Assembly (NCBI GenBank): GCA_020846275.1
Contig: JADLEG010000031.1
Coordinates: forward strand, 10,556-74,555
From: Alphaproteobacteria bacterium
GTDB taxonomy: Bacteria; Pseudomonadota; Alphaproteobacteria; JAEULC01
DNA length: 64,000 nt
Direction of reading: 5' to 3'
The notes under the pieces were generated by a model, which was not told the origin of the DNA, made no database searches, and saw only the letters and a program-made list of their open reading frames with translations. Both the position numbers and the translations under genes were made by a program. Of this stretch, positions 27,538 through 27,690 are shown one piece after another. Positions within the stretch are counted from its first letter, which is position 1. Every line of letters begins with the position of its first letter.

Positions 27538-27690
27538 TTTCTCATCCTTCGAGACGGGGCTTCGCCCCTCCTCAGGATGACGCGGTCTATTGGGCTCCAT
27601 AAGAACGCGTCATCCTGAGGAGCGAGTGCAAGCGAGCGTCTCGAAGGATGAGGAGCGAGTGCAAGCGAGCGTCTCGAAGGATGAGGAACG
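27538..27690. repeat. composite palindromic repeat element, copy 1 (includes a 33 bp perfect tandem duplication at 27621-27686)
   Basis: Arms TCATCCTTCGAGACG...CCTCAGGATGACGCG pair with CGCGTCATCCTGAGG...CGTCTCGAAGGATGA. Same family as 43985-44105 and 57890-58010. Confidence 0.75.

Follow-up and report, generated by a model that had tools for sequence, protein, structure and literature searches.

A box-and-hairpin palindromic repeat widespread in Alphaproteobacteria, probably a REP/BIME-like mobile DNA family, at three recently gained intergenic sites

Among alphaproteobacterial repetitive extragenic palindromes (REPs), those carrying a CGTC tag predominate and occur without a dedicated transposase (PMC3733652). 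Four families of this kind, CGTC-1 to CGTC-4 (Di Nocera et al. 2013), combine the CGTC tag with an 8–9 bp stem, a 4–5 nt loop and a CCA tail, and one CGTC-tagged repeat encodes the peptide VIAGLDPAIH (PMC3733652). Group 1 of the REP-associated tyrosine transposases (RAYTs), the one group whose distribution in the class PMC5581495 describes, is reported as rare there, and two further repeats, Br-REP1 and Br-REP2, have been reported from two genera, Bradyrhizobium and Rhodopseudomonas (Hahn et al. 2016, PMC5082802). Here, we describe a different palindromic repeat, present as three copies in a 64,000-nt stretch of the 82-kb contig JADLEG010000031.1 (G+C content 69% for the stretch, hereafter the window) from an alphaproteobacterial metagenome-assembled genome (MAG) that, among named organisms, stands closest to Azospirillum, Tagaea and other Rhodospirillales. 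The three copies are probably lineage-specific insertions of a mobile DNA family, non-autonomous and widespread in Alphaproteobacteria, that resembles REPs and bacterial interspersed mosaic elements (BIMEs).

A covariance model trained on 114 units, all from other genomes, and run without filters recovered exactly six units of 40–45 nt in the window, all intergenic and arranged as three inverted pairs, with scores of 50–66 bits versus 13.8 bits for the next-best match. The dispersed palindromic family of three copies proposed in an earlier reading of the letters without database searches (hereafter the sequence-only reading) was thereby borne out. Each unit consists of box A, a variable segment of 10–14 nt and box B, in the order 5'-(CC)YCRTCC, TTCGAGACG, variable GC-rich hairpin, CTCCTCA, GGATGR(GG)-3', and owing to TCATCC at the start of box A and GGATGA at the end of box B, each unit is an imperfect palindrome. 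It comprises an outer stem of 5–8 bp (CRTCC/GGATG), an asymmetric and almost invariant internal loop (TTCGAGACG opposite CTCCTCA, boxes of 8–9 and 6–7 nt) and a variable, GC-rich apical hairpin, and it ends in GAGG or GACG. Box A (TCATCCTTCGAGACG, up to two mismatches) was found seven times in the window versus 0.13 expected from shuffles, and box B (CCTCAGGATGA) six times within the elements. The components of the three copies, with bit scores from the covariance model, are as follows.

27540..27582, plus strand: left unit of copy 1, TCATCC-TTCGAGACG-GGGCTTCGCCC-CTCCTCA-GGATGA (54.6 bits)
27608..27653, minus strand: right unit of copy 1 (52.3 bits)
27653..27685, strand not applicable: tandem duplicate in copy 1, an exact 33-nt repeat of 27620–27652 comprising the inner segment and box A'
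27532..27708 (approximate), strand not applicable: extra DNA at site 1 versus relatives, from gap comparison with L121 and L124
43988..44029, plus strand: left unit of copy 2, inner hairpin GGGCTGCGGCCC (49.7 bits)
44056..44100, minus strand: right unit of copy 2, inner hairpin GGCCCCAAAGGGGCC as read on the plus strand (65.9 bits)
57887..57952 (model core 57897–57941), plus strand: left unit of copy 3 (65.2 bits)
57963..58007, minus strand: right unit of copy 3, with its terminal GAAGGATG providing or overlapping the start codon of the hydrolase gene (63.1 bits)

All three of these sites are unoccupied in syntenic relatives (L numbers denote collected loci). At site 1, the gap between the genes for DUF3501 and PhyH measures 184 nt in the window versus 6 nt in L121 (85% amino-acid identity) and 13 nt in L124 (81%); at site 2, that between the enoyl-CoA hydratase gene and cbtB measures 191 nt versus 80 nt in L223 (92%); and at site 3, that between the ABC ATPase and hydrolase genes measures 130 nt versus 4 nt in L228 (87%) and L230 (86%). 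The relatives' loci examined contained no units except for L227, from the closest relative (94%), which carries a four-unit composite at another site. In other lineages, orthologous sites with ~80–91% flank identity had the hairpin, the stem or unit type, or the number of units replaced. The element is a dispersed repeat of structured units that was gained recently at the three window sites and turns over at orthologous sites elsewhere. As the sites are empty in relatives at 81–92% protein identity, the host genes manage without it, which counts against a primarily cis-acting RNA element (a 3' stabiliser, a factor-dependent terminator or pause, or a processing site) kept by selection at each locus. 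The lack of units in close relatives, in the loci examined, similarly makes a general chromosome function unlikely, and so counts against a DNA site at which a chromosome protein of the host would bind, in the way that gyrase, IHF or DNA polymerase I binds to BIMEs.

Beyond this lineage, a scan of one genome per GTDB species identified at least 120 genome stretches with an exact match to the 25 specified bases (TCCTTCGAGACG-N6-30-CTCCTCAGGATGA). The named matches listed were all alphaproteobacterial by record title, barring two MAG labels, came from many orders and included Bradyrhizobium, Bosea, Reyranella, Methylocystis, Beijerinckia, Pseudolabrys, Microvirga, Devosia, Parvibaculum, Sphingomonas, Phenylobacterium, Zavarzinia, Rhodovibrio and Caulobacterales. 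The two other labels belong to MAGs named Parcubacteria (L031) and Akkermansiaceae (L047), which carry units on contigs that are probably mis-binned, and the repeat could serve to mark contamination. A looser pattern yielded 96 stretches with units in IMG/VR (L127–L222), on contigs classified as viral, some with up to six. As the collection scans demanded exact boxes, box conservation is overstated and the taxonomic spread is a lower bound; the later analysis of the collected loci used looser matching. Across 290 elements, inverted pairs made up 170 (101 with A boxes facing inward and 69 with B boxes facing inward), the remainder being 105 single units and 15 other arrangements. Within pairs, 45% joined units with different outer stems, which breaks the pairing between units, and in none of 167 did the two units share an inner hairpin.

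Covariation was assessed across 114 distinct 45-nt units. The outer helix was paired in 97% of cases, with two-sided changes at four of its five pairs (CC/GG to GG/CC or GC/GC, and T-A to C-G), and the inner helix in 94%, with two-sided changes at all six pairs and no one-sided changes of the G-U type. The covariation score of 0.366 compares with 0.125 for shuffles, none of 500 of which reached the observed value, and 0.04–0.11 for controls with slid partners. The inner segment was almost always a perfect hairpin, with a 5–7 bp stem and a 3–4 nt loop, had a mean folding energy of −8.7 kcal/mol versus −3.2 for shuffles, and was unique in 191 of 219 cases. Between the two helices, the boxes TTCGAGACG and CTCCTCA were nearly invariant, a conservation partly forced by the exact-match scans. 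The lack of G-T pairs in the inner helix, together with its perfect but free palindromes, would fit a DNA-level constraint or templated correction inside palindromes and not selection on RNA.

When folded as RNA, the pairs formed a four-way junction whichever strand was used, with energies of −69 to −92 kcal/mol and z values of −7 to −11, and single units folded at −21 to −45 kcal/mol. The cruciform expected by the sequence-only reading was recovered as the minimum-energy fold of the three copies, but the family as a whole does not follow the cruciform: because covariation acts per unit and 45% of dimers are mismatched in their stems, the selected structure is the single unit. In copy 3, the outer stem of the left unit is lengthened to ~16 bp (CCGGATTTCCTCGTCC / GGATGAGGAAATCCGG) and this unit alone folds at −45.5 kcal/mol, so that the whole-element fold (−71.1 kcal/mol) has little advantage over a pair of independent unit hairpins (−66.4). 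Two aligned units with the 5' flank GTGCGTCC show a rare joint change of GAGACG to GACACG and CTCCTCA to CTGCTCA, which may reflect a contact across the internal loop or a lineage-specific subtype. A kink-turn was considered for the internal loop and dropped by eye, as the second tandem pair would be A-C and not A-G.

The polymorphic presence of the elements, as dimers of 105–150 bp with inverted termini of 15–17 bp, is also a feature of classical miniature inverted-repeat transposable elements (MITEs), which derive from insertion sequences by internal deletion, keep their terminal inverted repeats and depend on a DDE transposase for movement. Such an origin appears extremely improbable here, as a search for target-site duplications of at least 3 nt gave none, units occur in either inverted arrangement and often singly, partner units are often unlike in stem type and always unlike in hairpin, and covariation backs hairpins at the level of the unit rather than the termini. 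Direct repeats of 3–6 nt at the element ends were no commoner than chance, and an excess of 2-nt repeats is a leftover of the palindrome. The REP/MITE-like label given by the sequence-only reading was nevertheless right in kind, in that the element is dispersed, palindromic, extragenic and enriched at gene 3' ends, with sites empty in relatives.

Placement relative to genes was determined in the collected loci with a crude, heuristic gene finder based on GC3. The 203 intergenic elements with exact boxes fell between convergent, tandem and divergent genes in 26/67/7% of cases versus a background of 14/72/14% (p = 1.7e-5). The median distance from a stop codon was 33 nt. Single units between co-directional genes were oriented with transcription in 23 cases and against it in 25, an outcome that the sequence-only reading had itself named as speaking against an orientation-dependent RNA role. 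The family combines a preference for gene 3' ends with indifference to the direction of transcription, and the orientation-locked placement proposed by the sequence-only reading is not supported, both because the window dimers are symmetric and because single units elsewhere are split almost evenly between the two orientations. The same gene finder placed 17–24 matches inside genes, most of them weak or near over-extended starts of open reading frames (ORFs). One inward-facing pair (L096, 1160–1265) lies 717 nt into a predicted ORF of 1000 amino acids, and is either a gene-call error or possibly a genuine insertion within a gene that keeps the reading frame, as the palindromic elements of Rickettsia do.

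Several of these properties are shared with a cis-acting RNA, namely the very stable folds, the position 10–27 nt past stop codons in the window and close to them elsewhere, the enrichment between convergent genes, and conserved internal-loop bases between covarying helices, a pattern typical of functional RNAs. REPs of E. coli moreover stabilise upstream mRNA and can stall ribosomes near the stop codon (cited in PMC5082802). However, in addition to the empty sites, the even split of single units relative to flanking genes, the inner helix without G-U intermediates, the lack of an Rfam family and an orientation that follows GC skew and not transcription make it unlikely that the element is primarily an RNA. 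A scan of both strands at the three copies gave no terminator-like site and no hairpin followed by a T-tract, so that the terminator role suggested by the sequence-only reading is not supported in its canonical form. A putative role of individual elements as mRNA stabilisers or protein-binding sites is possible.

The orientation of single units instead follows the replication strand to a moderate degree. The strand on which box A comes first was the G-rich strand of the locus in 62 of 95 singles (p = 0.004), and CC-type singles alone agreed with GC skew in 55 cases versus 23. Local skew was unrelated to the gene-strand majority (r = 0.09), and where a locus had genes on each of the two strands, the replication component agreed in 20 of 29 cases. 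The only frequent wobble, at position 4 of the outer stem (56 G-T versus 5 A-C), also favours the box-A-first strand. This orientation bias, boxes that hardly change from order to order although the helices do, and the pairing of units in alternating orientation, as in BIMEs, are compatible with a binding site for a host chromosome protein, in which case the class-wide conservation of the boxes would stem from a conserved binding protein. Such a site is nonetheless very doubtful, as nothing points to a particular protein, the demand for exact matches in the scan makes the boxes look more conserved than they are, and close relatives lack units in the loci examined.

Taken together, the empty sites, the turnover, the unit-level covariation and the placement favour a mobile DNA of the REP/BIME kind as the probable identity of the family. 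A number of observations weigh against this. A tblastn search with seven RAYT/Y1 proteins gave no match in 223 sequences (222 loci and the window), a weak test in that the sampled stretches would seldom include a gene present only once per genome. Neither a target-site duplication of at least 3 nt nor a flank motif was found. Hairpins specific to each unit are unlike simple copy-and-paste from a master copy, and boxes that are near-invariant across orders could instead indicate a host function. The bias relative to GC skew is moderate (65%) and was measured on stretches of 5–14 kb, and among heterodimers it is a trend only (38 of 62, p = 0.10). Furthermore, the apical loops are mostly TTC, TGC or TAC on the box-A-first strand and GAA, GCA or GTA on its complement. 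Loops reading GAA, GCA or GTA are typical of DNA mini-hairpins of very high stability. The strand signals are thus not unanimous, since the loop type favours the strand opposite to that indicated by the wobble and the GC-skew bias.

Under the REP/BIME-like reading, an enzyme whose gene lies elsewhere would probably recognise the unit in the form of a single, folded strand of DNA, with the conserved boxes of the internal loop as the putative recognition or cleavage module and an apical hairpin that need only pair. Units would land in, and be replaced at, intergenic sites, mostly just past stop codons, and the inserted copies would be transcribed passively into a very stable stem-loop. Copies 1 and 2 would in this way add 3' structure to the DUF3501/PhyH and enoyl-CoA hydratase mRNAs, while copy 3 would split the ABC ATPase/hydrolase pair, whose members lie 4 nt apart in relatives, and bury the hydrolase start codon in a stem. 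Any effects on mRNA stability, ribosome release or translational coupling would be side effects and not the reason for the existence of the family. More tentatively, the units may be the substrate of a non-RAYT system of single-strand DNA mobilisation or recombination common to Alphaproteobacteria, with the internal loop (TTCGAGACG / CTCCTCA) as its recognition site and the apical hairpin as a 'cassette' that is replaced wholesale. If so, such a system would explain the origin and turnover of alphaproteobacterial REP-type repeats that lack a known transposase.

Within the window, all three pairs have their B boxes facing inward. Their nested arms, described by the sequence-only reading, enclose loops of 21, 22 and 25 nt. 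The statement in that reading that all copies share one orientation was uninformative beyond the inward B boxes, since the arrangement A-B...B'-A' reads alike on both strands. The six units carry six distinct inner hairpins, and the self-complementary insert expected in every arm is present in five of the six; the exception is the right arm of copy 1 (GCGAGTGCAAGCGAGC), where the inner segment of the unit (CTCGCTTGCACTCG) lacks self-complementarity and can be assigned to a CTCGC...GCTCG subtype that recurs in the family. Mirror-like CTCGC-NNN-GCTCG segments with two central mismatches account for ~14% of the 13-nt class, in different genomes, and the right arm of copy 1 (27623–27636) is a variant of them. 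Copy 1 is longer than the others because of an exact tandem duplication of 33 nt (27620–27652 and 27653–27685), which generates on the minus strand a head-to-tail junction at which box B breaks off after CTCCTCA and passes directly into TCCTTCGAGACG of the following unit (27645–27662). The same junction type is found in the relative L227 (8426–8591). The units at the window junction are identical, suggesting a recent duplication, while the junction hairpins in L227 differ, suggesting that this junction type recurs independently. The extra DNA at site 1 also contains an outer complementary pair (GCCGCG/CGCGGC) and a small additional hairpin (CGCCCCGAAGGCG).

The conserved cores begin 10–27 nt past the stop codons of the genes for DUF3501, enoyl-CoA hydratase and ABC ATPase, consistent with the position just 3' of plus-strand genes noted from the letters alone. 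For copy 1 this is only part of the picture, as it lies between convergent genes for DUF3501 (plus strand, stop at 27524) and PhyH (minus strand, stop at 27709), 25 nt from the PhyH stop, and so is not specific to plus-strand genes. Copy 2 lies downstream of the enoyl-CoA hydratase stop at 43979 and had been placed in the cbtBA leader; it is instead located in the 3' region of the hydratase gene, upstream of a conserved promoter-like site.

44115..44144, plus strand: promoter-like site TTGACA-18-TATGGT, outside the element (10/12 in the promoter scan; conserved in relatives)
44171–44353, downstream of the promoter-like site: cbtB (Pfam CbtB match)

This sigma-70-like promoter was the only feature present in the region ahead of cbtB-cbtA (43900–44400), where neither a cobalamin riboswitch nor any other Rfam family was found, even at E ≤ 10.

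Copy 3 separates the ABC ATPase gene, which stops at 57871, from the hydrolase gene, with its ATG at 58002. The overlap with the hydrolase start noted by the sequence-only reading was confirmed, in that this ATG lies inside the right terminal box of the copy (GAAGGATG) and aligns with the start codon of the relative. The N-terminus (MHALAVALFLVLPSCAP...) matches that of the relative in the alignment, and the Pfam Hydrolase_4 match runs from 58002, which, judged by comparison with relatives, is the real start of the predicted gene. The longest hydrolase ORF opens at an ATG at 57936, within box B of the left unit of copy 3. As this ATG is in the element and the true start is at 58002, elements of this family can lengthen ORF calls by ~22 codons.

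In the flanks, the 12 nt from the upstream stop are identical at copies 1 and 3 (TGAAGCGGGCGC; 27522–27533 and 57869–57880), and an AGCGGG-like sequence is present at two of the three empty sites in relatives. As a feature of the family TGAAGCGGGCGC was rejected, with seven occurrences observed across flanks versus five expected. A second hairpin family, CCCTCTCCCGCC-N3-GGCGGGAGAGGG with a 12-bp stem, occurs at 58971–58997 and 59451–59477. These hairpins flank a small minus-strand ORF (59036–59401), and relatives lack them in the orthologous regions. A less strict pattern (one mismatch per arm, arms 6–16 nt apart) gave 33 matches in 231 sequences, three of them in the window.

The repeat is of an ordinary kind; less ordinary are the class-wide boxes, the hairpins specific to each unit, the turnover at orthologous sites and the replication-strand bias. 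Three features give a handle on how alphaproteobacterial REPs move: sites that are clearly filled or empty, replacement of elements at orthologous positions, and a strand bias linked to replication. Its units cause spurious ORFs and mis-called starts, and masking the family would clean the annotation of alphaproteobacterial genomes and MAGs. In addition, the separation of the ABC ATPase/hydrolase pair by copy 3 and the burial of the hydrolase start codon predict altered expression.

No published name for the family was found in the literature, in agreement with the sequence-only reading, which had not recognised the sequence. Rfam 15 gave no match in the window at gathering thresholds, and in E-value mode only generic microRNA-precursor hairpin models were returned, at 17–32 bits versus thresholds of 65–268. 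The box strings were found in literature text only in unrelated primers, and as figures lie outside a text search an earlier description is conceivable. Tobes and Pareja (2006) contains nothing bearing on the family, and a blastn search of PLSDB plasmids in 'distant' mode with copy 2 gave no match, which does not imply absence as the boxes are too short for BLAST.

Compared with described repeats, the element shares with the REPs and BIMEs of Enterobacteria and Pseudomonas the short imperfect palindromes that are extragenic, dispersed and in alternating orientation, as well as the enrichment at gene 3' ends and between convergent genes. Its sequence is however unrelated and lacks the GTAG tag, the units starting with CGTC or CCTC followed by ATCC. 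It also differs in its conserved asymmetric internal loop and freely varying apical stem, in boxes that recur class-wide and not genus-wide, and in that no RAYT gene was seen nearby. REPINs of the REPIN/RAYT systems (Bertels and Rainey; PMC3116915, PMC5581495) are similar in forming an inverted doublet able to fold into a long hairpin and in having filled and empty sites. In contrast to REPINs, the doublets described here never share an inner hairpin (0 of 167), mix stem types in 45% of cases, do not form a near-identical population within a genome and are common in both inward and outward arrangements.

The CGTC-tagged REPs (PMC3733652) are alike in their alphaproteobacterial hosts, frequent dimers, common heterodimers and lack of an associated transposase, and in a C(G/C)TC-AT head, which in the window reads CGTCATCC in copies 1 and 2 and CCTCATCC in copy 3. 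The published tag, CGTC or its forms TGTC and CCTC, leads into a stem that opens with AT. In the present family, however, the last C of the tag pairs with G in 107 of 114 units. By their text description, those repeats differ from the present unit, which has an outer stem of 5–8 bp, boxes, a nested variable hairpin and a GAGG or GACG end. Head-to-head dimers predominate among CGTC REPs and tail-to-tail dimers are rare, whereas here pairs with A boxes inward (101) exceed those with B boxes inward (69), so that outward-facing dimers outnumber inward-facing ones. The peptides encoded by CGTC-1 and CGTC-3, where listed, also differ from those of the present unit. Br-REP1 and Br-REP2 (PMC5082802) are likewise palindromic repeats in overlapping 3' untranslated regions of alphaproteobacterial genes, and Br-REP2 has a similar box-hairpin-box layout, but their consensus sequences (CCGGAATCTCGAGATTCCGG, and CGAGATTCCGGG...CCCCGGAATGA) have, by eye, no box in common with the present unit.

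The IS200/IS605 family provides a mechanistic analogy only, in that one strand is recognised through an imperfect hairpin and adjacent bases, the target is not duplicated and orientation is linked to replication. The orientation of IS608, for example, is biased relative to replication. The present units differ from this family in being far smaller, in having no detected conserved target tetranucleotide and in that no TnpA/Y1 gene was found. The element is accordingly filed under REP/BIME, as it works like them, and is not a REPIN in the strict sense.

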